Assembly (NCBI GenBank): GCA_018829965.1
Contig: JAHJTG010000013.1
Span: 1-57,920, forward strand
DNA length: 57,920 nucleotides
Source of the DNA: Patescibacteria group bacterium
Lineage (GTDB): Bacteria; Patescibacteriota; Minisyncoccia; Minisyncoccales; Staskawiczbacteraceae
Reading direction: 5' to 3'
Both the position numbers and the translations under genes were made by a program. Positions within the stretch are counted from its first letter, which is position 1. Every line of letters starts with the position of its first letter. Below are positions 11,844 through 56,668 of this stretch, in pieces. The notes beneath the pieces are model-generated. The model was not told where the DNA came from and searched no databases. It was given only the letters and a program-made list of their open reading frames with translations.

Positions 11844-11854
11844 CTTGTAATTGT

Positions 11855-19960: not shown

Positions 19961-19996
19961 TAAAAAACATAATCAAGGTCGAGCTCTTAAAATAAA

Positions 19997-20061: not shown

Positions 20062-20074
20062 AAATTAGGAAATT

Positions 20075-21168: not shown

Positions 21169-21173
21169 ACTAA

Positions 21174-21310
21174 AATTCTAAGCACTAAACTCTAAATCCT
21201 AAACAAATTCAAATGTTTCAAATTCCAAATTCCAAACGACGACGGGTTTGTGATTTATAGTATTGTGATTTGGGATTTATTTAGAATTTAGAAATTAGGA
21301 TTTAGAATTT
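21174..21310. repeat. Intergenic palindromic element family B, copy 2
   Basis: TTCTAAGCACTAAACTCTAAATCCTAAAC...TTTAGAATTTAGAAATTAGGATTTAGAATTTC. It ends 4 nt before ATG 21315. Confidence 0.75.
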
Positions 21311-21314
21311 CATT

Positions 21315-22820: not shown

Positions 22821-23546
22821 ATGCCTTCAAGAGAAGTTCAATTTTATCCAGGAGAATTTTATCATATTTATAATCGTGGCAACGCAAAGCAGGATATTTT
22901 TTATAATGACAGGGATAGATATAGATTTCTTCAAGCAATGTATTTATCAAATAATAGCGATTGTTCTGTTCGGCTAATGGAATTAGAAAAAAATAAAAGC
23001 GGATATACCCTTGCCGATATAAAAAAAGTTTTTAATGAAGGAAAAATTTCTTATAATCCATTGGTTAGAATAAGCGCTGATGTTTTAATGCCTAATCATT
23101 TTCATTTGCTGATTGAGGAACTGCAAGAGAAGGGGATCAGTCGTTTTATGCAGAGGTTGGGAGATAGTTACGGGAAATATTTTACTATAAAATATGATCG
23201 TCCGGGCAGTTTGTTCCAGGGTCGTTTTAAGGCAGTTCATATAAAAAATGACGATCAACTTAGATATTTATTGGCTTATATTAATGCGATAAACCCGGCG
23301 CAATTAATAGAACCAAAAATTAAAGAAAAAGGTATTGAGGATTTCCAAAAAATATTAGAAGGAATAAATAAATATTCATGGGGTACTCATTTTGAATATA
23401 TGGGCAAGAGAGAATCTGCTATTATTGATAAAGGATTATTGGGAAAAATTTTTTCAACTCCAGAAATTTATTACGAATTTATCAAAGAAATTTTACATGG
23501 GAAAGAAGATATGTGGAGCCCCATAGAAGGATTAATGCTTGATTGA
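22821..23546 (+). CDS. IS200/IS605-like HUH Y1 transposase, REP-associated tyrosine transposase (RAYT)-like
   Basis: HUH motif LMPNHFHLLIEE, Tyr motif LAYINAINPA, N-terminal FYHIYNRGN. Confidence 0.75.
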   Translation: MPSREVQFYPGEFYHIYNRGNAKQDIFYNDRDRYRFLQAMYLSNNSDCSVRLMELEKNKSGYTLADIKKVFNEGKISYNPLVRISADVLMPNHFHLLIEELQEKGISRFMQRLGDSYGKYFTIKYDRPGSLFQGRFKAVHIKNDDQLRYLLAYINAINPAQLIEPKIKEKGIEDFQKILEGINKYSWGTHFEYMGKRESAIIDKGLLGKIFSTPEIYYEFIKEILHGKEDMWSPIEGLMLD

Positions 23547-37522: not shown

Positions 37523-37546
37523 TAAGCGCTCTGCGCTTTATTTTTA
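37523..37546 (+). terminator. Rho-independent terminator
   Basis: AAGCGC-TCT-GCGCTT followed by TATTTTT. Confidence 0.55.
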
Positions 37547-37661
37547 AAACCAAAACTCAAAAATCAAATACCAAAACCACAAACCAAAAATAAAAAGATA
37601 AAAAGTTTAAAGGTCTTTAATCTGTATTTTTGATTTTTGATATTTGGTCTTTGGTTTAATT
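37546..37661. repeat. Family-B-like palindromic element (CCAAAA/TTTTGG variant) upstream of rpsL
   Basis: AAAACCAAAACTCAAAAATCAAATACCAAAACC...GTATTTTTGATTTTTGATATTTGGTCTTTGGTTT. It ends 3 nt before ATG 37665. Confidence 0.65.
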
Positions 37662-37664
37662 CAA

Positions 37665-38075: not shown

Positions 38076-38078
38076 ACT

Positions 38079-38172
38079 ATCAGCGTAAATCCGCTATCAT
38101 CGGCGTAATCAAAAAAGGTATTTCAATACACAGAAAAGATTACCGCTGATTAATAGCTGATTGTCACAGATA
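38079..38172 (+). repeat. Intergenic palindromic element family A, copy 1
   Basis: ATCAGCGTAAATCCGCTATCATCGGCGTAATC...GATTACCGCTGATTAATAGCTGATTGTCACAGATA fills the rpsL-rpsG spacer. Confidence 0.85.
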
Positions 38173-38177
38173 AAAAA

Positions 38178-43032: not shown

Positions 43033-43035
43033 TTT

Positions 43036-43170
43036 TGGAAATCCCAAATCCAAAATCCTAAATTCTAAACAAATCCAAATATCAAAATCAAAAATCCAAA
43101 ACACGTTTTGAATTTTGAAAATTTGAGTTTTGAACTTATTTAGGATTTAGTGCTTAGTATTTAGAATTTC
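43036..43170. repeat. Intergenic palindromic element family B, copy 3
   Basis: GGAAATCCCAAATCCAAAATCCTAAATTCTAAAC...AAACACGTTTTG...TTTAGGATTTAGTGCTTAGTATTTAGAATTTC. Confidence 0.75.
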
Positions 43171-43190
43171 AAAAAATTAGATTTTTTGTC

Positions 43191-43592
43191 ATGCCAGTAA
43201 AGAAAGTAATAAAGTCCCGACTTAGTCGAGGATCCTCGTCAGAGACGGGAAAAATTGAAAAAGCAGAAGAAAAGGTTGCTGAAGAAGCAAAGCCTCGACT
43301 TCGCATCAAACTCCAAGCTTATGACCATAAGATAATTGATAATAGTGCTCGGCAAATTATTGATATTGCAACAAGATATGGGGCAGATGTGATAGGGCCT
43401 ATTCCTTTACCAACTGAAATATTAAAATTTACCGTGGACAGGTCTAGTTTTATTCATAAAGATGCAAGAGAACAGTTTGAAATGAGAGTCCATAAACGTA
43501 TAATTGACATTTTAAATCCTAATCCGGATATTTTAGAAGCATTGAGAGACATAAACCTTCCTTCCGGGGTTGATATTGCTGTAAAGATTTAA
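43191..43592 (+). CDS. rpsJ: 30S ribosomal protein S10 with a ~30-aa N-terminal extension
   Basis: RLRIKLQAYDHKIIDNS core. The extension contains a GC element. Confidence 0.9.
   Translation: MPVKKVIKSRLSRGSSSETGKIEKAEEKVAEEAKPRLRIKLQAYDHKIIDNSARQIIDIATRYGADVIGPIPLPTEILKFTVDRSSFIHKDAREQFEMRVHKRIIDILNPNPDILEALRDINLPSGVDIAVKI
43214..43250 (+). repeat. GC-rich intragenic element family GCI-2 (in the rpsJ N-terminal extension)
   Basis: GTCCCGACTTAGTCGAGGATCCTCGTCAGAGACGGGA. It shares GTCCCGAC...GGATCCTCG...CGGGA with the SDR insert. Confidence 0.7.
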
Positions 43593-43724
43593 AGTAGTCC
43601 CTCTTGTAATTGAGAGGGATATATTGTAGAATTGCAATAATTATGGAGATAAAATATTTTTAATAAAAAATCCGAAGTTAAGTCCTTAGTTTTTAAATAC
43701 CGGGCTTAATGCCCGGTATTCAGT

Positions 43725-43806
43725 TATATGGATAGTGAAGCTATCCATATAATTAATCGTTCGGTCGGAATGATAATGAATTCTCATCCCTTCCTCACTC
43801 ATAATT
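43725..43806 (+). repeat. Leader cassette family F, copy 7 (upstream of rplC)
   Basis: TATATGGATAG-TGAA-CTATCCATATA, then ATTAATCGTTCGGTCGGAATGATAATGAATTCTCATCCCTTCCTCACTCATAATT. Confidence 0.8.
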
Positions 43807-43813
43807 ATAAAAA

Positions 43814-44452
43814 ATGAAATTTATTCTTGGTCAAAAAATTGGAATGTCACAATTATTCGGTAAGGATAGCAAAGTGGCGCCAGTAACCCTGATTGAAGTC
43901 GGGCCTTGTTATGTTTTACAGAAAAAGACTAAAGAGAAAGATGGATATGAAGCGCTTCAAATAGGATTTAATAAAATTGAGAAAAAGAATAAGATTTTAA
44001 AATCTCAAAAAGGAAAAGAGTACAAATATATAAAAGAGTACCGATTGCAAAGCAATCGAGTATCCTCAATAGAATCGGGACAAAATATAAAAGATCCTTT
44101 AGATATTAAAGTCGGAGATAAGATTGATGTATCAATTTTTAAAGAAGGAGACAAAGTAAAGATTGCTGGTATTTCTAAAGGAAAAGGTTTTCAGGGAGCA
44201 ATAAAAATGTGGAACTTTGCCGGGAAGTTTGCTTCGCACGGCGTAAAGCACGAGCACAGAAGCATAGGATCAATCGGCGGTCGTTTTCCACAAAGAGTTG
44301 TTCCGGGAAAGAAAATGCCGGGTCGTATGGGAGGGGAAAGAATAACAGTAAAAAATTTAGAAATAATGAAAATTGATTTGGAAAACAATTTATTAATAAT
44401 TAAAGGAGCGGTTTCGGGGAGAAAGGGAACTTTGTTAGAGATTAAAGGATAA
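43814..44452 (+). CDS. rplC: 50S ribosomal protein L3
   Basis: FKEGDKVKIAGISKGKGFQG...HRSIGSIG. Confidence 0.92.
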   Translation: MKFILGQKIGMSQLFGKDSKVAPVTLIEVGPCYVLQKKTKEKDGYEALQIGFNKIEKKNKILKSQKGKEYKYIKEYRLQSNRVSSIESGQNIKDPLDIKVGDKIDVSIFKEGDKVKIAGISKGKGFQGAIKMWNFAGKFASHGVKHEHRSIGSIGGRFPQRVVPGKKMPGRMGGERITVKNLEIMKIDLENNLLIIKGAVSGRKGTLLEIKG

Positions 44453-44527
44453 AATATTTAAGTAAATTTAAAACAAAAAGGCGCCTATTTTCATAGACGC
44501 CCTGGATAGACGATTCTGTCGGTTTAT

Positions 44528-44809
44528 TTAAGCAGTTTTTTCGGCGGTAGCGGCGGTAGGCTTTTTGGAGATTTTAGGCATAATTGTTTCGATGCTTATC
44601 TTTCTGAATTTTTCCTTTACGGCCTTAATCGTTGCGAAAAGCATAGGCAGTATGATCGAGCTTGAAACTATTGCAACCGCTAAAATCAGGCCAACAAAAA
44701 TAGGTTTATTATTACCCCTATAAAGGAAATAATTTGAAAAAGAAATAACGAGGAGGAAAAGACTATAACCGGCGAGCATTGAATAACCAAACCAAAGATT
44801 TTTATCCAT
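44528..44809 (-). CDS. Small 3-TM membrane protein encoded antisense between rplC and rplD
   Basis: AAGGAGA 7 nt upstream of ATG 44809 (MDKNLWFGY...), three hydrophobic spans. The track start 44857 is rejected. Confidence 0.5.
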   Translation of the reverse strand: MDKNLWFGYSMLAGYSLFLLVISFSNYFLYRGNNKPIFVGLILAVAIVSSSIILPMLFATIKAVKEKFRKISIETIMPKISKKPTAATAEKTA

Positions 44810-44882
44810 TTTTTGTCTCCTTGTATAAAAAAAGAAATAAATATTTTTAAACAGCAATTAATAAATAGTATAAGTTAAAAAC

Positions 44883-45563
44883 ATGAATGTCAAGGTTTTA
44901 AATCAAAAAGGGAAAGAAGTTGGAAGTGCCTTATTGCCAAAGGAAATTTTTGATGTAAAGATGAATTCTGATTTAGTCCATCAGGTTAAAGTTTCTCAGA
45001 TGTCTAACCATAGGCAAGGGTCAGCCCATACAAAAGACAGATCAGAAGTGAGAGGAGGGGGGAAAAAACCATGGAGGCAGAAAGGAACAGGCAGAGCTAG
45101 AAGTGGTTCCAGTCGTTCGCCAATTTGGAAAGGTGGTGGAGTGACCTTTGGTCCTAGAAATGATAAGAATTACAAAAAAGAGATTCCAAGGAAAATAAGG
45201 AGAAAAGCCTTACTTATGGTTTTGTCTCAAAAATTTAGAGAAAACTTATTAGTTGTTTTAGATGAATTAAAATTGGAAAAATCCCAGAACGAAAACCTTC
45301 GGTTTTCTACGGGGCAGGCAAAAACAAAATTAACCAAATCAATGGCAGAAATTATAAAAAAATTACCATTTCAAGATAAAAGCTGTTTAATTGCTTTACC
45401 TAATTATGACAAGAAAATAATTTTAGCAGCAAGAAATATTCCTAAGGTTAGCACAATTGAAGCAAGAAACCTTAATGTTTTAGATTTATTGAATTCTAAA
45501 TACTTATTGATGTCAAAAGATACGATAAAAGCAATTAAAGAAACATTCCTTGGTAGCGTCTAG
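44883..45563 (+). CDS. rplD: 50S ribosomal protein L4
   Basis: GGGKKPWRQKGTGRAR. Confidence 0.92.
   Translation: MNVKVLNQKGKEVGSALLPKEIFDVKMNSDLVHQVKVSQMSNHRQGSAHTKDRSEVRGGGKKPWRQKGTGRARSGSSRSPIWKGGGVTFGPRNDKNYKKEIPRKIRRKALLMVLSQKFRENLLVVLDELKLEKSQNENLRFSTGQAKTKLTKSMAEIIKKLPFQDKSCLIALPNYDKKIILAARNIPKVSTIEARNLNVLDLLNSKYLLMSKDTIKAIKETFLGSV
45283..45319 (+). repeat. GC hairpin insert in rplD
   Basis: Perfect hairpin GAAAACC-TTC-GGTTTTC followed by TACGGGGCAGG (GCI-1-like end), translated SQNENLRFSTGQA. Confidence 0.55.
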
Positions 45564-45620
45564 GGTATAGCGTTTAGCGTATAGTTAACTGAACCCTGAA
45601 CCCTGAACCCTAAACCCTAA
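45553..45620 (+). repeat. Intergenic element family C (TAGCGTATAGGG.. / ..AACCCTAAACCC), copy 1
   Basis: TAGCGTCTAGGGTATAGCGTTTAGCGTATAGTTAACTGAACCCTGAACCCTGAACCCTAAACCCTAA. It contains the rplD stop codon. Confidence 0.8.
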
Positions 45621-45634
45621 TTATAAAAATAATC

Positions 45635-46093
45635 ATGAAATTATCAGATATTTTTAAAAAGAAAATAAAAAAACAGAAAAAAACAGAGGTTAAAGAAATT
45701 GAAACAATTGCGGAGAAGAAACCTGTCCACAATGCTCCCGCCCCAACTTCAAAGATGTTGGCGGATGCAGGCGGGGAAGCTCCAAAAAGAGAAACTGTGA
45801 AGCGCAAGAAAAGCGTAGCTACTGTCTATAACATTGTTTCAGAGCCGCATATTTCAGAAAAATCAATGGGTTTGAATGAAATTAACCAGTACATATTTGA
45901 TGTTTTTCCAAAAGCTAATAAGGTTCAGATAAAAGAGGCGATAGAAATAATTTATGGAGTAGATGTTTTATCAGTAAATATAATTAATATCGCGCCAAAG
46001 AAAAGAAGATTAGGAAAAATTCAGGGTTTTAAAAAAGGATACAAAAAGGCAATAGTAAAAGTGAAGGCTGGACAAAAAATAGAGATTTTATAA
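45635..46093 (+). CDS. rplW: 50S ribosomal protein L23 with a ~55-aa N-terminal extension
   Basis: The core IFDVFPKANKVQIKEAIEIIYGV is preceded by a K/E-rich extension. Confidence 0.85.
   Translation: MKLSDIFKKKIKKQKKTEVKEIETIAEKKPVHNAPAPTSKMLADAGGEAPKRETVKRKKSVATVYNIVSEPHISEKSMGLNEINQYIFDVFPKANKVQIKEAIEIIYGVDVLSVNIINIAPKKRRLGKIQGFKKGYKKAIVKVKAGQKIEIL
45722..45776 (+). repeat. Degenerate GCI-1 copy inside the rplW extension
   Basis: CCTGTCCACAATGCTCCCGCC...GGCGGATGCAGGCGGGG (compare CCTGCCCGCAATGCTTCGCCCGCC...GCGATGCAGGCGGGG). Confidence 0.6.
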
Positions 46094-46095
46094 AT

Positions 46096-46204
46096 ATCAG
46101 CGTAAATCCGCTATCATCAGCGTAATCAGAAGAGTCATTTCACGACCCGCAAGCGGGTACCCCGAAAAAGATAACTGCTGATTAATAGCTGATTGCCACA
46201 GATT
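46096..46204 (+). repeat. Intergenic palindromic element family A, copy 2 (with nested GC hairpin)
   Basis: ATCAGCGTAAATCCGCTATCATCAGCGTAATC..CACGACCCGC-AA-GCGGGTACCCCG..ATAACTGCTGATTAATAGCTGATTGCCACAGAT. Confidence 0.85.
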
Positions 46205-46211
46205 AAAAAAC

Positions 46212-47039
46212 ATGAAGATATATAAACCTAATACATCAAGCCAAAGAGGAATGACTGGAATTGATTATTCTATTTTAATAAAGAAAGAGCCAGAGAAGAC
46301 TCTTACCGTTTCTTTACAAAGAAGAGTTGGAAGGGCAAGTAATGGCAGAATTACTACTCGTCATAGAGGGGGTGGAGTAAAAAGAATGTATAGAATAATT
46401 GAGTTTAAGCAACCAAAGTTAGAAGTAGCAGGGAAGATTATTTCCTTAGAATATGACCCGAATAGAACGTCTTTTATTGCTTTAGTCCAATATCCAGATA
46501 ATAGCAAGGTTTATATTTTAGCCCCTAAAGATTTAAAAGTTGGGGATACGGTTATTTGTGGAGAAAAAACTCCTATAGCTCTTGGGAACAGAACAAGGCT
46601 TAAAAATTTATTGGTAGGAACTATGGTTCATAATATTGAATTTGAGCCAGGAAGAGGTGGAATAGCTGTAAAAGGAGCTGGGACAGGAGCCCAGATATTA
46701 GCTCAAGATGGCCCATATACACAATTAAAAATGCCGTCAACTGAAATCAGAAAATTAAAAAGCGATTGTTTTGCTTCAATCGGTATGGTTTCTAATTCGG
46801 AACATCGTTTTGTTAATATTGGAAAAGCAGGAAGGGCAAGATTAATGGGGAAAAGACCTGCGGTTCGGGGTACCGCTATGAACCCTTGCGACCATCCTCA
46901 CGGAGGTGGCGAAGGTAGGCAACCCATTGGCCTGAAACATCCTAAGACCCCATGGGGTAAAGCGGCTTTAGGACTTAAGACAAGAAAAAGAAGCAAACGA
47001 TCAAATAAGTTCATTATTCAAAGAAGAATTAAAAAATAA
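46212..47039 (+). CDS. rplB: 50S ribosomal protein L2
   Basis: CDHPHGGGEGR. Confidence 0.96.
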   Translation: MKIYKPNTSSQRGMTGIDYSILIKKEPEKTLTVSLQRRVGRASNGRITTRHRGGGVKRMYRIIEFKQPKLEVAGKIISLEYDPNRTSFIALVQYPDNSKVYILAPKDLKVGDTVICGEKTPIALGNRTRLKNLLVGTMVHNIEFEPGRGGIAVKGAGTGAQILAQDGPYTQLKMPSTEIRKLKSDCFASIGMVSNSEHRFVNIGKAGRARLMGKRPAVRGTAMNPCDHPHGGGEGRQPIGLKHPKTPWGKAALGLKTRKRSKRSNKFIIQRRIKK

Positions 47040-47040
47040 T

Positions 47041-47134
47041 ATTAGCGTAAATCCGCTATCATCGGCGTAATCAAAAAAAGTATTTCAACACACAGAAAAG
47101 ATTACCGCTGATTAATAGCTGATTACCACAGATA
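47041..47134 (+). repeat. Intergenic palindromic element family A, copy 3
   Basis: ATTAGCGTAAATCCGCTATCATCGGCGTAATC...GATTACCGCTGATTAATAGCTGATTACCACAGATA. Near-identical to copy 1. Confidence 0.85.
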
Positions 47135-47139
47135 AAAAC

Positions 47140-47484
47140 ATGTCCCGTAGCTTAAAAAAGGGTCCGTATATAGACCCAAGATTATTAGAAAAAATAGGGA
47201 AAGTAAGAAAGGGGGATAAGGTTATTATTAAAACATGGGCAAGAGCTTCATCAATTGCGCCAGAAATGATTGGCTTTACTTTTGGCGTTCACAATGGGAA
47301 AGAGCACATCCCAGTTTATATCACAGAAGATATGGTAGGACATAAACTTGGAGAATTTGCTTCAAGTACAAAATTCCAAAGACATGGAGGCAGGATGCAA
47401 AAGGAAATAGAAGCAGGAGCTGAACAAAAGGAGGTAGCAAAGACAGAAGCAGTAATTAAGCCGGCTGATAATCCAGTTAAATAA
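47140..47484 (+). CDS. rpsS: 30S ribosomal protein S19 (C-terminally extended)
   Basis: SRSLKKGPY and GHKLGEF. Confidence 0.93.
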
Positions 47485-47489
47485 AAACT

Positions 47490-48080
47490 ATGCAGATTAA
47501 AGTTAAATTAAATTATTCAAGAATAGCGCCCAGAAAAGTAAGACAGGTCGCAGATATGATTAGAGGGAAAGGAAGTGAACAAGCTCAGAATATTCTTGAG
47601 TTTACAGTAAGAAAGCCAGTAGTCCCAATTTTAAAACTATTAAACAGCGCATTGGCTACAGCTAAGCATGAGTTTCAGATAGAAGCTACCAATCTTTACA
47701 TTTCCAAAATCATAGTTGATGAAGGACCGAAGTTAAAAAGATTTAGGCCGGTTTCACGTGGAAGTGCCCACCCCTTATGGAAAAGAACATCGCATATCAC
47801 TTTAATTTTAGATGAGATAGATCCGACCGCTAAAAAGAAAACAGCTCGTAGCAAAGGAAAAACAAAAGGTGAATCCTCCTTCGCTAAAGCTACGGCGGAC
47901 AAGAAGGAAGAGTCTATTGAGGCAATAGAAACAAAACCAGTTCAGGAAAATGGAGAGATTTCAAAAGAGGAAGATTTTCAGAAAAAGAAACCTGCTTACA
48001 ATACTTTTGAGAGGAGAGATTTTAAAAAGAAAAAAGGTCAGAATGTTTTAAATAAAATGTTTAGAAGAAAATCCATATAA
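47490..48080 (+). CDS. rplV: 50S ribosomal protein L22 with a ~80-aa C-terminal extension
   Basis: The core ISKIIVDEGPKLKRFRPVSRGSAHPLWKRTSHIT is followed by a K/E-rich tail. Confidence 0.9.
   Translation: MQIKVKLNYSRIAPRKVRQVADMIRGKGSEQAQNILEFTVRKPVVPILKLLNSALATAKHEFQIEATNLYISKIIVDEGPKLKRFRPVSRGSAHPLWKRTSHITLILDEIDPTAKKKTARSKGKTKGESSFAKATADKKEESIEAIETKPVQENGEISKEEDFQKKKPAYNTFERRDFKKKKGQNVLNKMFRRKSI
47874..47900 (+). repeat. Degenerate GCI-3 copy in the rplV tail
   Basis: TCCTCCTTCGCTAAAGCTACGGCGGAC (compare CCGCCTTCGCCAGAGGCTACGGCGGGC at 28048). Confidence 0.45.
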
Positions 48081-48084
48081 GATG

Positions 48085-48151
48085 TAGCGTATGGGGTATA
48101 GCGTTTAGCGTATAGTTAACTAAACCCTAAACCCTAACACCTAAACCCTAA
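48085..48151 (+). repeat. Intergenic element family C, copy 2
   Basis: TAGCGTATGGGGTATAGCGTTTAGCGTATAGTTAACTAAACCCTAAACCCTAACACCTAAACCCTAA. Confidence 0.8.
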
Positions 48152-48155
48152 AAAG

Positions 48156-48809
48156 ATGACACACAAGGTTCATCCAAAATCATACAGAATTAAAGGAATG
48201 GAGGATTGGAGCATCCGCGGTTTTTACGGTAAAAAACCAGCGAAATTATTTGAAGAAGATTTTTTAATAAGAGAATTTTTACAAAAACAATTAACCGAAG
48301 CCTCGGTCGCAAATATTGAAATTGAACATTCCGCGAATAAAATGAATATTATAATTCATACAGCAAGACCAGGTTTAATTATTGGCAGGGGAGGTGAAGG
48401 AATAGAAAAACTAAAGGCGGTTTTATTTAAAAGAGCGCTTAATAGAAAAATTATAAATCCGAAAAAAGAAATAAAAATAGAAATAAGAGAAATAAAAAAT
48501 CCTTTATTGTCCGCTGTTCTTGTAGGCCAACAAATGGCGCAACAGATTGAAAAAAGACTGCCTTTCCGTCAGGTTTTAAAAAGGACAATAGAAAAAGTAA
48601 TGTTAAATAAGGAAGCAAAGGGTGTAAGGGTTGAAGTAGGGGGAAGGTTAAATGGGGTTGAAATCGCAAGAAAAGAATGGTTAAGGCAAGGACGTTTGCC
48701 TAGAAATACAATAAGAGCAGACATTGACTATTCAGAAACCCGAGCCTATTGCACTTATGGTGTGATTGGCATTAAGGTTTGGATTTACAAAGGAGACAAA
48801 TTCGAGTAA
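48156..48809 (+). CDS. rpsC: 30S ribosomal protein S3
   Basis: KH-domain GRGGEGIEKLK and a C-terminal S3 pattern. Confidence 0.94.
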   Translation: MTHKVHPKSYRIKGMEDWSIRGFYGKKPAKLFEEDFLIREFLQKQLTEASVANIEIEHSANKMNIIIHTARPGLIIGRGGEGIEKLKAVLFKRALNRKIINPKKEIKIEIREIKNPLLSAVLVGQQMAQQIEKRLPFRQVLKRTIEKVMLNKEAKGVRVEVGGRLNGVEIARKEWLRQGRLPRNTIRADIDYSETRAYCTYGVIGIKVWIYKGDKFE

Positions 48810-48810
48810 T

Positions 48811-48938
48811 CCTACGAATTACGAATTAAACCGAATTACGAATAAAAAATTCGTAGTGAAAGGTGAAAGTTCGTAAATTCGTACAACCGTACAACACTTT
48901 CCGTATATTCGTAATTCGAAAATATTCGTAATTCGTAA
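48811..48938. repeat. Intergenic palindromic element family D, copy 2
   Basis: CCTACGAATTACGAATTAAACCGAATTACGAAT...ATTCGTAATTCGAAAATATTCGTAATTCGTAAG. Confidence 0.85.
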
Positions 48939-48944
48939 GAGAAC

Positions 48945-49355
48945 ATGAGCATATTAATGCCGAAAAAAGTAAAACACAGAAAATGGCACAAGTATACGTC
49001 TAAGGGTATTGAGAATAGAGCGACTGAATTAAATTTCGGAAGTTTTGGGTTGAAATCGTTAGGAACAAAATGGGTTACAGCAAGGCAAATCGAAGCTGCG
49101 AGAAGGGTAATAATTCGTCATCTTAAAAAAGGGGGAAAACTTTGGATTCGTATTTTTCCTGATAGGCCCATAACTTTTAAAGGAAACGAAGTGCCAATGG
49201 GCGGAGGCAAAGGAGCTGTAGATCATTATGTTTTTGCAGTTAGGCCAGGGAGGATGATTTTTGAATTAGATGGTATTAAAGAAGAAGTAGCAAAAGAAGC
49301 TTTTAAAGTGGCGTCAGGTAAGTTGCCAATTAAGACTAAATTTGTTAAAAGATAA
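48945..49355 (+). CDS. rplP: 50S ribosomal protein L16
   Basis: [10 protein letters not shown] and ARQIEAARR. The start may be ATG 48945 or 48957. Confidence 0.93.
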
Positions 49356-49420
49356 TAGCGTAGGGTATAGCATCTAGGGTATAGCTTATAGTTAACTAAA
49401 CCCTAAACCCTAAAACCTAA
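49356..49420 (+). repeat. Intergenic element family C, copy 3
   Basis: TAGCGTAGGGTATAGCATCTAGGGTATAGCTTATAGTTAACTAAACCCTAAACCCTAAAACCTAA. Confidence 0.8.
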
Positions 49421-49425
49421 AAAAT

Positions 49426-49611
49426 ATGAAAGCAAGTGAATTAAAAAAGAAAAATAAAAAGGAGCTTGAAAAGGATTTGGAAAAATTGAAAGAGAATTTG
49501 AGCGGTCTTCGTTTTAAGCTTGCTGCCAATAAGTTAAAGAATGTTAGGGAAGTAAGGAATATAAAGAAAGATATTGCCAGAATATTAACCATATTAAAAA
49601 TGAAATCCTAA
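49426..49611 (+). CDS. rpmC: 50S ribosomal protein L29
   Basis: 61 aa, ELKKKNKKELEKDLEKLKENL...NKLKNVREVR. The last codons and the stop lie in repeat B4. Confidence 0.85.
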   Translation: MKASELKKKNKKELEKDLEKLKENLSGLRFKLAANKLKNVREVRNIKKDIARILTILKMKS

Positions 49612-49717
49612 ATCCTAAATTCTAAATCCTAAATAAATTCAAATATAAAAGTTCAAAATCAAAAATGTTTAGAATTTAGAAATTAGAGCTTAGAATTTCT
49701 TTTACGAAGTAAAAGTA
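49603..49717. repeat. Intergenic palindromic element family B, copy 4
   Basis: AAATCCTAAATCCTAAATTCTAAATCCTAAAT...TTTAGAATTTAGAAATTAGAGCTTAGAATTTC plus terminal hairpin CTTTTAC-GAA-GTAAAAG. Confidence 0.8.
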
Positions 49718-49719
49718 AT

Positions 49720-49953
49720 ATGCCTAAAAAAACATTACAAGGAAAAGTCGTTTCCGATAAAATGCAAAAGACAGTTGTGGTAGAGGTGGAAAGAATTAAA
49801 GAGCATCCTAAATATAGGAGAAGATTTAAGGTACATAAAAAATATAAGGCTCACGACGAGAAAGGAGAATATAAAGTTGGAGATAAGGTTACGATCGAAG
49901 AATGCAAGCCTTTATCTAAAGATAAAAATTGGAAGGTAGTTAATAAAATATAG
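49720..49953 (+). CDS. rpsQ: 30S ribosomal protein S17
   Basis: [20 protein letters not shown]. Confidence 0.92.
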
Positions 49954-50015
49954 CGTTAGCGTCTAGGGTATAGCGTATAGTTAACTAAACCCTAAATCCT
50001 AAACCATAAACCCTG
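49951..50015 (+). repeat. Intergenic element family C, copy 4
   Basis: TAGCGTTAGCGTCTAGGGTATAGCGTATAGTTAACTAAACCCTAAATCCTAAACCATAAACCCTG. Its first TAG is the rpsQ stop. Confidence 0.8.
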
Positions 50016-50020
50016 AAAAA

Positions 50021-50389
50021 ATGATTCAACCAAGGTCAATGTTAAAAGTTGCCGACAATAGTGGAGCTAGGATTATCCAATGCATGTGTGTTTTAGGGGG
50101 AACCCGCAGGCGATATGCCCAGCTGGGTGATGTTATAGTAGCTGCAGTAAAAAAGGCTGACCCAAGAAAATTGGTAAAAAAACACGAAGTGGTGAAAGCG
50201 ATAATTATTCGTCAAAAAAAAGAATATAGAAGAGTAGATGGTTCATATATCCGTTTTGATGATAACGCAGCTGTAATTATTGGAGACGAAAATAAACCAA
50301 AGGGCGGAAGAATTTTTGGTCCTGTAGCGAAAGAAATAAAAGAAAAAGGTTTTAACGATGTGGCAATGTTAGCCTCAGAGTTAGTATAA
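50021..50389 (+). CDS. rplN: 50S ribosomal protein L14
   Basis: MIQPRSMLKVADNSGA. Confidence 0.96.
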   Translation: MIQPRSMLKVADNSGARIIQCMCVLGGTRRRYAQLGDVIVAAVKKADPRKLVKKHEVVKAIIIRQKKEYRRVDGSYIRFDDNAAVIIGDENKPKGGRIFGPVAKEIKEKGFNDVAMLASELV

Positions 50390-50408
50390 AAGATCAGAAA
50401 GAATACAC

Positions 50409-50516
50409 ATCAGCGTAAATCCGCTATCATCAGCGTAATCAGAAAAGATATTTCACGACCCGCAAGCGGGTACCCCGAAAAAGATTACCGCTGATTAATA
50501 GCTGATTGCCACAGAT
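50409..50516 (+). repeat. Intergenic palindromic element family A, copy 4 (with nested GC hairpin)
   Basis: Near-identical to copy 2, including CACGACCCGCAAGCGGGTACCCCG. Confidence 0.85.
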
Positions 50517-50522
50517 AAAAAT

Positions 50523-50828
50523 ATGAAAATACATAAAAATGACCATGTCCTTATAATTTCAGGAAAAGACCGTGGAAAGACGGGCAAGGTTTTGAGCGTT
50601 CTTTCAGAGAAAAGCAAGATTGTTGTTGAAGGAGTTAATTTAAGAAAGAAATGCGTAAGGCCGAAGAAATCTGGAGAAAAAGGTCAGATTATTCAGATTA
50701 CAGCTCCGTTGAGTTCTTCAAATGTCAAGGTAATTTGCGGAAAGTGTGGAAAGGCTTCAAGAATGGGGTATAAAATTAATGGAGATAAAAAATATAGAAT
50801 TTGTAAGAAGTGTAAGCAAAAAATTTAA
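50523..50828 (+). CDS. rplX: 50S ribosomal protein L24 (with a zinc-ribbon-like C-terminus)
   Basis: KNDHVLIISGKDRGKTGKV KOW motif. The C-terminus reads CGKCGK...CKKCK. Confidence 0.9.
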   Translation: MKIHKNDHVLIISGKDRGKTGKVLSVLSEKSKIVVEGVNLRKKCVRPKKSGEKGQIIQITAPLSSSNVKVICGKCGKASRMGYKINGDKKYRICKKCKQKI

Positions 50829-50908
50829 GACACAGATTTATACAGATACTGCGGATTTATGCGGATACGTATCAGTATAAATCAGTTAAAATCAGTATTA
50901 ATCAGCGT
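50829..50908. repeat. Degenerate family-A-related element
   Basis: CACAGATTTATACAGATACTGCGGATTTATGCGGATACGTATCAGTATAAATCAGTTAAAATCAGTATTAATCAGCG fills the rplX-rplE spacer. Confidence 0.55.
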
Positions 50909-50910
50909 TT

Positions 50911-51465
50911 ATGCTAAGATTAAAAGACAAATACAAAAAAGAGGTAATACCGGTAATGATGGAAAAATTCGGGTATAAAAATGTTATGGCAATCCCAAAG
51001 ATTGTAAAAGTTGTAATAAACTCTTGCTTTGGAAAAGAAGTCGCCACTAAAACCTCGCAAGAAAGAGAAAAAGTTGTCCAGAATGTTACAAATGATTTGA
51101 CCCTAATTTCAGGGCAAAAACCAAGGATTGTGAAGTCAAAAAAATCAATTGCTGGTTTTAAATTAAGAGAAGGTCTTGATATTGCCGTAGCAGTTACCTT
51201 AAGGAAAGATAGAATGTATGATTTTTTGGAAAGATTAATTTACTTGACTCTTCCTCGTTCTAGAGATTTTCAAGGTATTAATCCAAAATCAATCGACCAA
51301 AAGGGAAATTTAAATATTGGATTTAAAGAGCACATCTCTTTCCCAGAAGTTATTACTGAAAAAGAGAAAACCATTTTTGGTTTGGAGATATCAGTTGTAA
51401 CAAATGCTAAAAATAAAGAAGAAGGCTTAAGGTTGTTTAAATTATTAGGATTTCCAATAAAATAA
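50911..51465 (+). CDS. rplE: 50S ribosomal protein L5
   Basis: [21 protein letters not shown]... L5 pattern. Confidence 0.94.
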
Positions 51466-51466
51466 T

Positions 51467-51652
51467 ATGGCTACAACCGCACAAATAGCAAAAGCAAAAA
51501 AGAAACCAAAATTCAGCTCAAGAACTATTAGGCGCTGTTTTAGATGTGGAAGAAGAAGGGGCTTTATACGGAAGTTCGGTCTTTGCAGAATATGTTTCAG
51601 AGAATTAGCCAATAAAGGAGATATACCAGGTATTAAAAAATCTTCGTGGTAG
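51467..51652 (+). CDS. rpsN: 30S ribosomal protein S14 type Z (zinc-binding)
   Basis: 61 aa, [20 protein letters not shown]. Confidence 0.92.
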
Positions 51653-51659
51653 TAGTTAT

Positions 51660-51756
51660 CCCTACGAATTACGAATTTAACCGAATTACGAATTATTCGC
51701 AGAGGAAATAAAAATTGATTCGTATTCGTAATTCGAAAATATTCGTAATTCGTAAG
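51660..51756. repeat. Intergenic palindromic element family D, copy 3
   Basis: CCCTACGAATTACGAATTTAACCGAATTACGAATTATTCG...ATTCGTATTCGTAATTCGAAAATATTCGTAATTCGTAAG. Confidence 0.85.
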
Positions 51757-51778
51757 AAAATAATTAAAATAATTATTT

Positions 51779-52168
51779 ATGGTAGATCCAATAACAGACA
51801 TGTTAAATCAAATAAGGAACGCTCAAGCCGTGGAAAAAGCAGAAGTATCTGTGCCGTTTTCGCAATTAAAGCAATCAATTGCTGAAATATTGGCGGAGGA
51901 AGGTTTCATAGGCGCTATTAAAAAGAGTTTAAAAAAAGAAAGCAGGACATTAAAGATTAATTTAAAATACAAAGAAGGCGCGCCAGTTATTGTAGGGTTA
52001 AAAAGGATTTCAAAGTCGGGACAGAGAATTTATGTAAAATCGTCTGAAATAAAAGCTGTGCGTGGCGGAAGAGGTTTCAGTATAATCTCAACGCCTAAGG
52101 GATTAATGACAAATAGGAAAGCAAGGCAGGAGAAATTAGGAGGGGAAGTTATTTGCGAAATTTGGTAA
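51779..52168 (+). CDS. rpsH: 30S ribosomal protein S8
   Basis: DPITDMLNQIRNA. Confidence 0.94.
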   Translation: MVDPITDMLNQIRNAQAVEKAEVSVPFSQLKQSIAEILAEEGFIGAIKKSLKKESRTLKINLKYKEGAPVIVGLKRISKSGQRIYVKSSEIKAVRGGRGFSIISTPKGLMTNRKARQEKLGGEVICEIW

Positions 52169-52186
52169 ATTAAAATATCAGCGTAA

Positions 52187-52270
52187 ATCCGCTATCATCA
52201 GCGTAATTAAAGAAGTCGCTTCAATAAAGAAAAAAGATTACCGCTGATTAATAGCTGATTGCCACAGATA
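52187..52270 (+). repeat. Intergenic palindromic element family A, copy 5
   Basis: ATCAGCGTAAATCCGCTATCATCAGCGTAATT...GATTACCGCTGATTAATAGCTGATTGCCACAGATA. Confidence 0.85.
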
Positions 52271-52275
52271 AAATT

Positions 52276-52872
52276 ATGTCAAGAATAGGTAAACAACCAA
52301 TTCAAATACCGGCAGACGTGAAAGTAGAAATAATAGAGGGTCCCGTCCCAGCAGGGCGAGGCTCGCCCAATTCTATTGGGCGGCAAGAAATAAAAGTTTC
52401 GGGACCACTGGGGAATTTAGCTCAAACAATTAACCCAGAGATAAAGATAGAAGTTAAGGACGGGCAGATTTTGCTTTCTCCTAAAAAAGAAGATTACTTG
52501 AAGAAAACAGGAGCTCTTTGGGGCTTATTCAGAGCTATTGTTGCTAATATGATTACTGGTGTTACAAAAGGTTTTGAAAAGAAGTTGGATATAGAAGGGA
52601 TTGGGTACAAGGCGTCTGTTGAAGGAAACGATTTATCTTTAAGCGTTGGATTTACTTTGCCAGTAAAGGTAAAATGTCCAGAAGGCGTAAAGTTTGCTGT
52701 TGAGAAAAACCTAATCTTCGTCACCGGTTCTGACAGGGCAAAAGTAGGGCAAATTGCAGCAATCATTAGAAAGGTTAAGAAAGCAGAGCCATATAAAGGA
52801 AAAGGTTTGAGATATTTTGACGAAGTAATTAGGAGAAAAGAGGGCAAAAAAGTAGTTGCAACAAAAAAATAA
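52276..52872 (+). CDS. rplF: 50S ribosomal protein L6 (with a ~15-aa insert)
   Basis: MSRIGKQPIQIP and an L6 two-domain pattern. Confidence 0.93.
   Translation: MSRIGKQPIQIPADVKVEIIEGPVPAGRGSPNSIGRQEIKVSGPLGNLAQTINPEIKIEVKDGQILLSPKKEDYLKKTGALWGLFRAIVANMITGVTKGFEKKLDIEGIGYKASVEGNDLSLSVGFTLPVKVKCPEGVKFAVEKNLIFVTGSDRAKVGQIAAIIRKVKKAEPYKGKGLRYFDEVIRRKEGKKVVATKK
52339..52383 (+). repeat. GC-rich intragenic element (GCI-4-like) in rplF
   Basis: GGTCCCGTCCCAGCAGGGCGAGGCTCGCCCAATTCTATTGGGCGG (45 nt), with palindrome GGGCGAG-G-CTCGCCC and hairpin CGCCCAAT-TC-TATTGGGCG. Confidence 0.7.
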
Positions 52873-52897
52873 ATAATCACAGATATTTGCAAAGCAA

Positions 52898-53335
52898 ATG
52901 AGTATAAAAAGTCAAAAAAGGCAAAGACGCCATAAAAAGATAAGAGCAAGAATAAAAGGCACGGCTAAAAGGCCGAGACTTTGTGTTTTTAAGTCCTCAC
53001 AACATATTTATGCTCAATTGATAGATGATGATAAAAATAATGTTATAGTCTTAGTTAGCGATTTTGATGTCAAGAAATCTTCAAAACAGAGTCCTGCCCG
53101 CATTGCTACGCCAGCCCGCATTGCTACGCAAAGCGTTGCAGGCGGGCAAAGCGTTGCTGGCGTGGTAAAGCGAGGGAATAAAGAAAATAATTCCTTTGAA
53201 GTAGGTAAGTTAATAGCAGAAAAAGCTAAAGAATTAAAAATTACAGAAGTAGTTTTTGACCGCGGAGGTTTTGTATTCCACGGGAGGATAAAAGCAGTTG
53301 CTGATGGAGCTAGAGAAGGCGGACTTAAGTTTTAA
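52898..53335 (+). CDS. rplR: 50S ribosomal protein L18 (with a ~25-aa insert)
   Basis: RRHKKIRARIKGT and FDRGGFVFHGRIKAVADGAREGGLKF. Confidence 0.92.
   Translation: MSIKSQKRQRRHKKIRARIKGTAKRPRLCVFKSSQHIYAQLIDDDKNNVIVLVSDFDVKKSSKQSPARIATPARIATQSVAGGQSVAGVVKRGNKENNSFEVGKLIAEKAKELKITEVVFDRGGFVFHGRIKAVADGAREGGLKF
53093..53166 (+). repeat. GC-rich intragenic hairpin element, family GCI-1 (in rplR)
   Basis: CCTGCCCGCATTGCTACGCCAGCCCGCATTGCTACGCAAAGCGTTGCAGGCGGGCAAAGCGTTGCTGGCGTGG, translated PARIATPARIATQSVAGGQSVAGV. Confidence 0.8.
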
Positions 53336-53351
53336 AATATTTAAAAATATG

Positions 53352-53482
53352 TCCCGTTAGAAGTCCGACAATTATAATAAAGACTTTTTATGAGGCAGAG
53401 AAAAAATATTAATTAATAATTTGTCCTTGCAATTAAGAAAAAATTTATTCAAAATTTTTTTCATCAAGGACTTCTAACGCGG
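53352..53482. repeat. Family H element, copy 2 (TIR CCCGTTAGAAGTCC / GGACTTCTAACGCGG)
   Basis: Terminal inverted repeats ~100 nt apart fill the rplR-rpsE spacer and end 1 nt before ATG 53484. Confidence 0.7.
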
Positions 53483-53483
53483 T

Positions 53484-53960
53484 ATGTTTGATTCTAATAG
53501 AAAAAGAGGTCCAAGAGAGTTTAAACCAAAAGATGAATTTGATTCAAAGCTTTTGGATTTAACTAGAGTTACTAGAGTTACTGGCGGTGGTAAGCGTATG
53601 ACGTTTCGTGCAGTTGTCGTTGTTGGCGACAGAAAGGGAAAAATTGGTTTTGGAGTTGATAAAGGTAGAGATGTTTCTCAATCAATAGAAAAAGCAACCA
53701 GACGCGCAAAAAAGAATTTAATTACAATAGCTATTAAAGAAAATACAATTCCTCATGAGGTTCAAGTTAAAGTGGGTTCGTCAGAAATTTTATTAAAACC
53801 TCAAACAAAAGGCCGTGGTTTGGTCGCAGGTGGCGTAGTTAGAGTAATTTGCGAATTAGCAGGAATTAAGGATGTATCCTCAAAAATTCTTTCAAGGTCA
53901 AAAAATAAACTTAACAATGCAAGAGCGACAATAGAAGCGTTAAAAAAACTTAATAAATAG
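53484..53960 (+). CDS. rpsE: 30S ribosomal protein S5
   Basis: RVTRVTGGGKRMTFRAVVVVGD. Confidence 0.94.
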   Translation: MFDSNRKRGPREFKPKDEFDSKLLDLTRVTRVTGGGKRMTFRAVVVVGDRKGKIGFGVDKGRDVSQSIEKATRRAKKNLITIAIKENTIPHEVQVKVGSSEILLKPQTKGRGLVAGGVVRVICELAGIKDVSSKILSRSKNKLNNARATIEALKKLNK

Positions 53961-54040
53961 ATTACTGCTGGTTAACCGCTGATAATTTCCGCGTAAATCC
54001 GCGTAGATATCCGCGTAAATCAGCGGTGAGCGAAGCGAAA
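53961..54040. repeat. Degenerate family-A-related element
   Basis: ATTACTGCTGGTTAACCGCTGATAATTTCCGCGTAAATCCGCGTAGATATCCGCGTAAATCAGCGGTGAGCG lies where rpmD would normally sit. Confidence 0.55.
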
Positions 54041-54490
54041 ATGCAATTACAAGAATTAAAACCAACACATAAAGGGAAAAGATCACAAAGAGTAGGTCGT
54101 GGCGGAAAGCGCGGGACCTATTGCGGTCGTGGAGTGAAAGGTCAAAACTCAAGAGCAGGAGCAAAAATGATGCCTATGATTAGAGAAATGATTAAAAGAT
54201 ATCCGAAACTTAGAGGTTATAGACATTCAGGGGTGCCAAAAAATATTGTTGTGGTAAACCTTGATATTTTAGAGAAAAAATTTAAAATCGGAGAAACAGT
54301 TTCTCCTGAAACTTTGCTAAAATTAAGAATTATTCGTAATATAAATGGAAAGGCTCCTAAAGTTAAAATTTTAGGCAGGGGAGAGCTAAAAAAATCTTTA
54401 ATTTTTGAAAATTGTTTAGTGTCTGGCAAGGCAAAAGAAATTATTGAAAAAGCAGGCGGCACAGTTAAAATCCTAAATCCTAAATCCTAA
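54041..54490 (+). CDS. rplO: 50S ribosomal protein L15
   Basis: RVGRGGKRGTYCGRG. Start taken at ATG 54041 (MQLQELKP), since the GTG at 54026 lies in the repeat. The tail KILNPKS* is encoded by repeat B5. Confidence 0.88.
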   Translation: MQLQELKPTHKGKRSQRVGRGGKRGTYCGRGVKGQNSRAGAKMMPMIREMIKRYPKLRGYRHSGVPKNIVVVNLDILEKKFKIGETVSPETLLKLRIIRNINGKAPKVKILGRGELKKSLIFENCLVSGKAKEIIEKAGGTVKILNPKS

Positions 54491-54575
54491 ATAAATTCCA
54501 AATTCCAAATTCCAAATTCTAAACGTGTTTAGGATTTAGATATTAGAGTTTAGAATTTCTTTTGCGAAGCAAAAG
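54467..54575. repeat. Intergenic palindromic element family B, copy 5
   Basis: AAAATCCTAAATCCTAAATCCTAAAT...AAACGTGTTTAGGATTTAGATATTAGAGTTTAGAATTTC plus terminal hairpin CTTTTGC-GAA-GCAAAAG. Confidence 0.8.
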
Positions 54576-54577
54576 CT

Positions 54578-56594: not shown

Positions 56595-56631
56595 TGGAAC
56601 ACCCGGTGTTCCACGTTAACACCCGGTGTTG
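56595..56631 (+). repeat. REP-like pair
   Basis: TGGAACACCCGGTGTTCCA and TAACACCCGGTGTTGG immediately after the adk stop. Confidence 0.85.
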
Positions 56632-56668
56632 GAGAGCGTATTTGACTTACTATTAATTAAAAATTTTA

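Follow-up and report, generated by a model that had tools for sequence, protein, structure and literature searches.

Palindromic elements with heptamer-repeat arms in the spacers of the S10-spc ribosomal protein operon of a Candidatus Staskawiczbacteria genome

Introduction

The Correia (nemis) elements of Neisseria and the Chunjie element of Geobacter are bacterial MITEs (miniature inverted-repeat transposable elements), and Chunjie resides in an operon without disrupting it. In the reduced genome of Rickettsia, palindromic repeats (Rickettsia palindromic elements, RPE) are also located in frame within genes, and eukaryotic Foldback (FB) transposons have long inverted arms of short tandem subrepeats. 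Bacterial MITEs have been reviewed (PMC3184786). Repetitive extragenic palindromic (REP) sequences mostly lie downstream of open reading frames (ORFs) between co-directional genes, and the RAYT transposase genes are flanked by repeats of their own (PMC3733652, PMC3333891, PMC3116915); a GTAG/CGTC tag beside a short GC-rich hairpin serves as the criterion for a REP (PMC3733652). Heptameric simple sequence repeats (SSRs) of intergenic DNA comprise the cyanobacterial STRR, (GGGAATC)n of Xanthomonas, (GGGGAYT)n of Nostoc and those of Calothrix (PMC4692102). Here we analyze a stretch of ~58 kb with ~35% G+C from Candidatus Staskawiczbacteria (contig JAHJTG010000013.1, positions 1 to 57,920, referred to as the window), in which most genes of the S10-spc ribosomal protein operon are separated by long palindromic spacers. 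We consider it likely that these spacers are occupied by small mobile elements of several families, non-coding and self-complementary, i.e., MITE- or REPIN-like foldback elements, which spread in this lineage and independently in some others.

The S10-spc operon is among the most compact and conserved bacterial operons, and the genomes of Patescibacteria are among the smallest and densest known. In the literature on palindromic repeats, MITEs and heptameric repeats we found no such repeats described for Patescibacteria/Parcubacteria.

Results

Junctions filled in the window are empty in the closest relatives

According to Pfam, the window contains a canonical str-S10-spc cluster from rpsL through map, in the order rpsL-rpsG-fusA-tuf-rpsJ-rplC-rplD-rplW-rplB-rpsS-rplV-rpsC-rplP-rpmC-rpsQ-rplN-rplX-rplE-rpsN-rpsH-rplF-rplR-rpsE-rplO-secY-adk-map, and nearly all genes of the window are on the plus strand. 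No rpmD gene (L30) was detected by Pfam in the cluster, including the region between rpsE and rplO (53961-54040). Loss of L30 is typical of Candidate Phyla Radiation (CPR) genomes. The nearest matches of RpsC belong to Candidatus Staskawiczbacteria and other Paceibacteria metagenome-assembled genomes (MAGs), the best being 80% identical. From rpsJ to map, 18 of 22 junctions are long (65-430 nt) and four are tight (5, 1, 25 and 22 nt); these recomputed lengths bear out the counts of the original prediction, which had been made from the sequence alone. The individual lengths (nt) are:

rpsJ-rplC 221; rplC-rplD 430; rplD-rplW 71; rplW-rplB 118; rplB-rpsS 100; rpsS-rplV 5
rplV-rpsC 75; rpsC-rplP 135; rplP-rpmC 70; rpmC-rpsQ 108; rpsQ-rplN 67; rplN-rplX 133
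rplX-rplE 82; rplE-rpsN 1; rpsN-rpsH 126; rpsH-rplF 107; rplF-rplR 25
rplR-rpsE 148; rpsE-rplO 65-80; rplO-secY 87; secY-adk 22; adk-map 74

For comparison, the operon was annotated in 80 related genomes. In the closest relatives (L003, L004, L005), whose RpsC is 75-80% identical, junctions that measure 67-148 nt in the window are 0-27 nt long, except for tuf-rpsJ (67 nt in L003, 34 nt in L004) and rplC-rplD (210 nt in L004). Four further genomes (L009, L015, L025, L029) likewise have 0-27 nt at nearly every junction, and rpsJ-rplC, with ~85-146 nt in nearly all related loci, is a general exception. Alignments of empty with filled junctions show conserved flanking codons and, in the window, an extra block between them. 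The elements are thus recent insertions relative to close relatives. That the elements end at the next start codon was also observed; trivially, however, any copy that lands in an ancestral spacer of 0-27 nt will do so.

The prediction had further treated the long spacers as a feature of the operon, but they extend over the whole window: 73% of the co-directional spacers are at least 60 nt long (84% inside the operon versus 67% outside), and the remaining gaps are occupied by other palindrome families. The median co-directional spacer measures 102 nt in the window versus 9 nt in 70-odd related loci, in which 25% of the spacers reach 60 nt.

Architecture of the repeat families

A repeat search of the window located families A to D where they had been predicted. 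Family A was found at 38062, 46090, 47024, 50403 and 52160, family B at 11726, 21173, 43039, 49603 and 54461 with a half-copy within the mnmA coding sequence (CDS) at 16930, family C at 45553, 48084, 49360 and 49949, and family D at 19995, 48808 and 51658. The elements are 59-135 nt long, with 3-6 copies per family within 58 kb, and each is an imperfect palindrome over its full length. Stop and start are each a few nt away from the base of the stem. The spacers fold far more stably than shuffled sequences, with z values of about -2 to -7.6, and this is not a chance effect.

In families B, C, D and others both arms are tandem heptamer arrays of ~4-5 units each (AAATCCT / TTTAGAA in B, TAGCGTA / CTAAACC in C, TACGAAT / ATTCGTA in D), while family A and its degenerate relatives use decamer units of the ATCAGCGTAA type. 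The loops are variable and some include a nested GC hairpin; short tail hairpins may follow, several with GCGAAGC. The hairpins of A to D are AT-rich and long. Family D ends in CCTAC...GTAGG and family C starts with GTAGCG, while A and B are without a GTAG/CGTC tag. Across 81 loci, arrays with a period of 7 account for 146 of 230 intergenic tandem arrays, and heptamer arrays are a hallmark of the clade. Stop codons occur in 122 of 169 heptamer units (113 +/- 5 expected); this excess is marginal and was set aside.

The nested hairpin GACCCGCAAGCGGGT is present exactly twice in the window, in copies A2 and A4, as the prediction had stated. Since these copies are also 88% identical to each other, the whole element was copied from junction to junction. 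The near-invariant arms, together with variable loops, indicate young copies. In correction of the prediction, three elements start within the upstream CDS and provide its stop codon, giving rise to the C-termini ...LGSV* (rplD), ...KS* (rpmC) and ...ILNPKS* (rplO), and the genes of the relatives end differently. The elements and other features of the spacers are listed here (coordinates, strand, description):

43033..43190, plus: family B, tuf-rpsJ; heptamer arms AAATCCN / TATTTAG, small tail hairpin before the ATG
43696..43720, plus: ancestral terminator/attenuator-like hairpin, rpsJ-rplC; ACCGGGC-TTAAT-GCCCGGT, then a T-rich run; conserved in relatives, no invader
43725..43813, plus: family F, inserted after the ancestral hairpin and ahead of the rplC ATG; TATAG..CTATA hairpin, TCGTTCGGTCGGAATGA, polypyrimidine arm
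44528..44857, minus: membrane-like ORF of 109 aa between rplC and rplD
45550..45634, plus: family C, rplD-rplW; starts in rplD and provides its stop codon
46094..46211, plus: family A (copy A2), rplW-rplB; nested GC hairpin
47040..47139, plus: family A (copy A3), rplB-rpsS
48081..48155, plus: family C, rplV-rpsC
48810..48944, plus: family D, rpsC-rplP; CCTACGAATTACGAAT...ATTCGTAATTCGTAAG
49356..49425, plus: family C, rplP-rpmC
49598..49719, plus: family B, rpmC-rpsQ; gives the last codons and stop of rpmC; tail hairpin CTTTTAC-GAA-GTAAAAG
49949..50020, plus: family C, rpsQ-rplN; overlaps the rpsQ stop codon
50390..50522, plus: family A (copy A4), rplN-rplX; nested GC hairpin as in A2
50829..50910, plus: A-like decamer palindrome, rplX-rplE; period 10, unit ATCAGTATAA
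51653..51778, plus: family D, rpsN-rpsH; AT tail hairpin
52169..52275, plus: family A (copy A5), rpsH-rplF
53336..53483, plus: family H, rplR-rpsE; 14-bp stem GTCCCGTTAGAAGTCC/GGACTTCTAACGCGG, loop of ~100 nt (a second H-like copy lies at ~8880-9005)
53961..54040, plus: A-like decamer palindrome, rpsE-rplO; period 10, unit TCCGCGTAAA, terminal GCGAAGC mini-hairpin
54461..54577, plus: family B, rplO-secY; first 18 nt translated as the rplO C-terminus ILNPKS*; tail hairpin CTTTTGC-GAA-GCAAAAG
56595..56668, plus: REP-like ACACCCGGTGT palindromes, adk-map; this family also flanks a RAYT-like gene
38076..38177, plus: family A (copy A1), rpsL-rpsG, upstream of the 43033-54577 stretch
37545..37664, plus: heptamer-armed palindrome AAAACCA / ATTTTTG directly upstream of rpsL
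19995..20062, plus: family D outside the operon, minimal 59-nt form
11724..11848, plus: family B outside the operon
21173..21312, plus: family B outside the operon

The tight rplF-rplR spacer (25 nt, 52873-52897) holds CACAGATA, a motif that family A conserves in its tail, and may be the leftover of a deleted A element.

Short-read contigs do end at these repeats, as would be the case if assembly or binning had falsely joined them between the genes: two independent Logan assemblies, which match window positions 47095-48842 at 100% identity, terminate within the repeats of families A and D. Both, however, are identical to the window across the entire C element and reach into the A and D elements. 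Since the two assemblies were obtained independently, the filled junctions are not an assembly artefact. Filled junctions of the same kind are also present in many independent MAGs and metagenome contigs, and the gene order is canonical, so that we attach practically no weight to this explanation.

Independent invasions, orientation and transposases

Expanded operons were also found in more distant Staskawiczbacteria (L012, L016, L021, L022, L024 and others), with the same heptamer-arm architecture as in the window, but with other or overlapping families at different junctions. Families common with the window are D (L012, L021, L062) and B (L016, L023, L062, L081), located at different junctions; these genomes were invaded independently. 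One metagenome contig carries D at rpsC-rplP like the window. Its RpsC is only 58% identical, less than that of the element-free L003, and the shared position is therefore best read as an independent insertion. A small GC-rich unit, CAGCCTTCGGGATGTCCTNNGGGNCAAGCG, is nested in other palindromic elements in L012 (at 8110-8260 and in the rplX-rplE spacer) and in the rplV-rpsC spacer of L024, which indicates that mini-elements insert into elements.

Scanning metagenome contigs with an exact pattern located family D in at least 118 stretches, on host contigs of 29-48% GC. Near-identical AT-rich copies are found in L099/L122 (contig Ga0155307_118, 45-48% GC) and in L127 (29% GC), and this near-identity across very different base compositions points to horizontal spread. 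When only flanking ORFs of at least 150 aa were considered, short D elements were in sense orientation to the genes in 23 cases, antisense in 12 and mixed in two, and extended D elements were distributed 14 versus 12; calls based on ORFs of at least 60 aa were unreliable near short ribosomal protein genes (e.g., in L106) and were discarded. Antisense copies are as tight as sense copies, 3-8 nt from both stop and start, and further D copies are present in gaps between divergent and between convergent genes. Thus, the lack of orientation bias and of a special relation to starts that would have refuted the prediction is largely what is seen for D, while the A to D copies of the window are all co-oriented. 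The predicted co-orientation with the genes holds for all 18 of these copies, but since the genes of the window lie almost exclusively on the plus strand, it cannot be told apart from co-orientation with replication.

The extended D subfamily of other organisms has terminal inverted repeats (GTTACTATTCAGTAAC.../...GAATAGTTAC) and is bordered by 8-bp target-site duplications, e.g., gaaatttt, gttatctt, caaaaaag, tgcaaaat, gaaaatgt and gattaaat. Due to these outer inverted repeats and duplications, extended D is a bona fide MITE. No inverted-repeat pair enclosing an ORF, i.e., no parent transposon of this MITE or insertion sequence (IS) with matching ends, was found in ~1.9 Mb of related loci, a negative of little weight given the 58 kb of this genome. 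Viral contigs gave no match for a phage vector of D or A.

One RAYT-like gene for a Y1 (HUH) transposase is present in the window (22821..23546, plus strand). It matches PF01797 Y1_Tnp with 27.8 bits (cut-off 23) and NCBIfam NF047646 REP_Tyr_transpos with 30.9 bits, which is under the cut-off of 80. Clusters of CAACACCCGGTGTTG palindromes bracket the gene at 22638-22705 and 23555-23690, a REPtron-like arrangement (22630-23690), and CAACACCCGGTGTTG units also lie at 31455, 35761, 36362, 38668 and, in the adk-map gap, 56595. No RAYT gene flanked by A to D was found. Since the flanking repeats of the RAYT-like gene are different ones, A to D do not belong to a REP-RAYT system; only the CAACACCCGGTGTTG family, which also fills the adk-map gap, has a cognate RAYT-like gene.

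Between the two alternatives of the original prediction, these comparisons favor saturation by MITE/REP-like elements: orthologous junctions are empty in some genomes and filled in others, the same families reside at different junctions in different genomes, D is found in hosts of widely differing GC content with 8-bp duplications in one subfamily, and a RAYT-like transposase gene is present in the window.

Tests for a function in RNA or DNA

The other alternative was co-option as modules for RNA processing, stabilization or translation initiation. The hairpins would then act in the polycistronic mRNA either as RNase III sites, the cuts yielding stable monocistronic pieces, or as 3'/5' stabilizers, or as bridges which keep each stop close to the following start and so preserve termination-reinitiation coupling where Shine-Dalgarno sites are missing. 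RNase III sites are located between the early genes of phage T7 and at the Correia elements of Neisseria. Long near-perfect stems are indeed predicted in the sense RNA, including stems of at least ~20 bp, the length needed for RNase III, and the z values given above are in line with this. The sense stems are, however, weaker than the antisense stems, with no sign of selection for sense pairing, and compensatory changes were found in none of 27 pairs in A, none of 17 in C and none in D, a test of low power because the copies are young. For D the covariation test is uninformative, as its 5' arm was fixed by the pattern used for scanning and hardly any arm position varies. One two-sided change (CTTTTGC/GCAAAAG versus CTTTTAC/GTAAAAG) is present in the tail hairpins, which adjoin the ATG. 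The stem bases, too, are a few nt from stop and start, but accessibility of the start codons was the same in real and shuffled spacers (0.50 versus 0.50). The window copies are in sense orientation without exception (18/18), whereas antisense D occupies equally tight junctions elsewhere, and the same families are found in non-operonic, divergent and convergent gaps and within CDSs. The overlapping or 1-5-nt junctions of relatives suggest translational coupling, but the elements are wholly missing from the closest of them. We therefore regard a role as co-opted RNA modules as unlikely, and this part of the prediction found no support in these tests.

Few Shine-Dalgarno sites are present, as had been predicted, but this is not tied to the elements. 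Such motifs are scarce clade-wide, including the relatives without elements, and the start context from -12 to -1 is ~50% A in filled and empty genomes alike. A loss of Shine-Dalgarno sites as a consequence of the elements was therefore rejected.

The antisense folds are more stable in 15 of 19 spacers, with 65 versus 29 G·U pairs. Composition-matched shuffles (A 40%, T 28%, C 17%, G 15%) account for +3.9 of the +6.9 kcal/mol difference between the strands, and D across genomes has 18 G·T versus 19 A·C. An antisense or single-stranded DNA function was rejected, as the asymmetry mostly reflects base composition.

A function for the host at the DNA level seems very improbable to us. The heptamers could bind a nucleoid, topology or replication protein, or each element could be a terminator plus promoter for its gene. 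The regular phasing of ~4 heptamers per arm across unrelated sequences would fit such a role, and precedents exist in REP sequences and bacterial interspersed mosaic elements (BIMEs), for which binding of gyrase and IHF has been proposed (PMC3733652, PMC3333891). The heptamers, however, differ by family and offer no single binding motif. Promoter-like sites are not enriched (37 versus 34.2 +/- 6.6 expected), which also led us to reject a promoter in every spacer and leaderless transcripts. Intrinsic terminators (hairpin plus T-run) gave few matches on the plus strand and none at the A to D elements; the ancestral rpsJ-rplC hairpin does fit this description. The absence of the elements from sister genomes argues against a DNA-level role as well.

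Over the whole window, Rfam 15 including the ribosomal protein leaders gave no match at gathering score, and the tRNA scan gave no match either. TIGR-Tas arrays, a literature hit for Patescibacteria, were considered and dismissed in view of what such arrays look like; neither an array-like interspaced repeat nor a Tas gene was seen in the window, although no search was made for either.

Insertions within coding sequences

GC-rich palindromic inserts lie in frame in L18 (rplR, 53090-53167, 26 aa), L6 (rplF, 52339-52383, 15 aa) and L4 (rplD, 45282-45326, 15 aa), and all three are missing from all aligned relatives. Further in-frame repeats, putative inserts, were observed in a NUDIX gene (12184-12285), iscS (15021-15107) and mnmA (16932-16991); the one in mnmA is an A/C-only heptamer array without stop codons. 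The period of the GC-rich family within CDSs is 18 nt and thus a multiple of 3, in contrast to the period of 7 of the intergenic families, which suggests that a reading-frame filter decides which repeats survive where.

Further features of the window

Almost all long spacers carry repeat copies, as had been predicted. The rplC-rplD gap, however, is mostly taken up by the minus-strand ORF of 109 aa rather than by a repeat, and this ORF explains its length of 430 nt. This ORF has no Pfam or NCBIfam match. Since it is accompanied by a promoter-like site (TTGACA-17-TACTAT, 44893-44865) and a strong terminator (44503-44478) of its own, the S10 cluster is physically interrupted. Large rplC-rplD gaps were also seen in six relatives (L004, L012, L021, L066, L081, L082).

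The rpsJ-rplC spacer (43593-43724 in the window; also seen in L003-L082) has at its end a GC hairpin followed by a T-run (e.g., AATGGGCA-N-GCCCATTTTTAGTTAA), both conserved; many relatives also have a conserved GTTAAC...AACAACATTGCC in front of it. The spacer is a candidate ribosomal protein attenuator or leader without an Rfam match.

Family F is a composite found at 4092-4187, 4476-4625, 5330-5460, 14655-14750, 41150-41250, 41700-41835 and 43725-43813, upstream of tuf, rplC, iscS and several small genes. It consists of a hairpin whose inner stem differs among copies yet pairs (TATAG-N-CTATA), followed by AATCGCTCGGTCGGAATGAAA, a polypyrimidine part CTCCCTTCCTC resembling the 16S 3' tail, and CATAAATAT immediately before the ATG. 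Two F copies are located in the fusA-tuf gap (40913-41835), 923 nt without a convincing gene, together with an ATAGAAA heptamer array and an inverted repeat of 23 bp (40918-40940 / 41046-41068). The heptamer CGCTCGG occurs nine times on the plus strand (2780, 4131, 5370, 8394, 14140, 35621, 38650, 40913, 41182) and once on the minus strand; several copies directly follow the stop codon of a gene, namely of rpsG, of fusA and of one that ends at 35607.

Discussion

The elements look like tolerated genomic parasites, not like new control elements. They are insertions when compared to close relatives, they are multi-copy, and distant hosts have them at non-orthologous sites; family D, in addition, inserts in either orientation. 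The selfish-element reading is well supported, while co-option is unsupported but keeps a small probability, not least because covariation tests say little about copies this young.

With ~90% of the genome coding and junctions of 1-10 nt, an insertion would be survivable only between a stop and the next start, and a surviving copy in such a spacer abuts both codons as a consequence. Three properties may help copies to persist. By folding on themselves they would avoid pairing with neighboring coding RNA; many carry stops in every frame (TAA/TAG once per heptamer) and could replace a lost stop; and the A-rich tail of the asymmetric families would fit the A-rich start context, without Shine-Dalgarno sites, of this clade. 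Selection on the end sequences could explain that the asymmetric families A, B and C point one way here while D, which has a CGTAGG(A) end either way, is found both ways. A strand-specific copying mechanism may alternatively account for the uniform orientation. The one Y1/RAYT-like transposase of the window probably pairs with another palindrome family, not with A to D. For the host, the elements are most likely neutral to mildly deleterious.

Several observations weigh against mobile elements of a purely selfish kind. For the window's copies of A, B, C, H and short D neither a target-site duplication is recognizable nor an autonomous partner was found. The uniform orientation of the 18 A to D copies would be a 1-in-16,384 outcome with random orientation inside each family, and it calls for a further assumption, be it the end selection or the strand-specific mechanism mentioned above. 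It is remarkable for a purely parasitic process that an essential operon was struck at 18 of its 22 junctions. The data comprise 58 kb of this genome. Heptamer-array arms are unexpected for IS-derived MITEs and suggest another generative or recognition mechanism. Alternatively, the elements may form a distinct, operon-compatible class of foldback elements in Patescibacteria, generated and homogenized on the basis of heptamers and by now part of the coupling or insulation of cistrons rather than mere passengers. Such elements may arise by slippage and intrastrand template switching, or through a protein that reads 7-nt phased hairpins. Each would be a self-contained cassette that leads from stops in all frames at one end, through a body that folds on itself, to a start context of A-rich or AGGA-like sequence at the other end, and the hairpin would keep the stop next to the following start in coupled operons without Shine-Dalgarno sites. 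We consider this class unlikely and prefer to regard the elements as selfish.

Read in this way, the window illustrates that streamlined episymbiont genomes can have bursts of selfish DNA, and that expression of ribosomal proteins tolerates hairpins of 70-150 nt between almost all cistrons without Shine-Dalgarno sites. Sister genomes with empty and filled junctions represent a natural experiment on the translation of internal cistrons. Moreover, the repeats break short-read assemblies exactly within the ribosomal protein block on which CPR phylogenomics and binning draw.

Among the known systems, REP, BIME and REPIN with RAYT of Enterobacteria and Pseudomonas share with our elements that they are high-copy extragenic imperfect palindromes, often located between co-directional genes just past stop codons and also inside operons; they lack target-site duplications, and none is recognizable for the copies of the window. 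The window also has a palindrome-flanked RAYT-like gene, and the CCTAC...GTAGG ends of D recall the GTAG tag. In contrast to the REP-RAYT systems, however, this gene is flanked by CAACACCCGGTGTTG and not by A to D, families A and B have no GTAG/CGTC tag, and the elements are AT-rich, 60-135 nt long and built of tandem-heptamer arms instead of one GC-rich hairpin of 20-40 nt. Their density in S10-spc is unlike that in E. coli. With MITEs they have in common that they are small (below ~600 bp), non-coding and multi-copy with inverted ends, and by analogy they would be co-transcribed with the flanking genes. Extended D also has terminal inverted repeats and 8-bp duplications; MITE membership is shown solely for this D subfamily, found in other organisms. 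The window copies differ in having heptamer arms and no duplication or parent IS that we found, and in them the whole element, not only its termini, is a foldback.

The RPE resemble our elements as palindromic repeats in a reduced genome which insert in frame in protein genes, here those for L18, L6, L4, IscS, the NUDIX protein and MnmA; in sequence, however, the two are unrelated, and among our elements the in-CDS family has a period of 18 nt and most copies are intergenic. The likeness to FB transposons, inverted arms of short tandem subrepeats, is an analogy only, as these belong to another domain of life, and the elements here are far smaller and have no known associated transposase. The nearest precedent of the heptamer arrays are the heptameric SSRs of Xanthomonas, Nostoc and Calothrix, tandem heptamers of commonly ~4 units that are over-represented in intergenic DNA, some of them as inverted pairs capable of forming stem-loops, with polymerase slippage as the proposed origin (PMC4692102). 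The arrays described here, however, are AT-rich and do not form G4; they systematically occur as pairs that make up hairpins, complete with loops and tails, and whole units are copied between loci and genomes. We therefore file the elements of the window as heptamer-armed foldback elements of Patescibacteria, REP/MITE-like in kind, whose unusual features are the arms of ~4 tandem heptamers and the degree of saturation.

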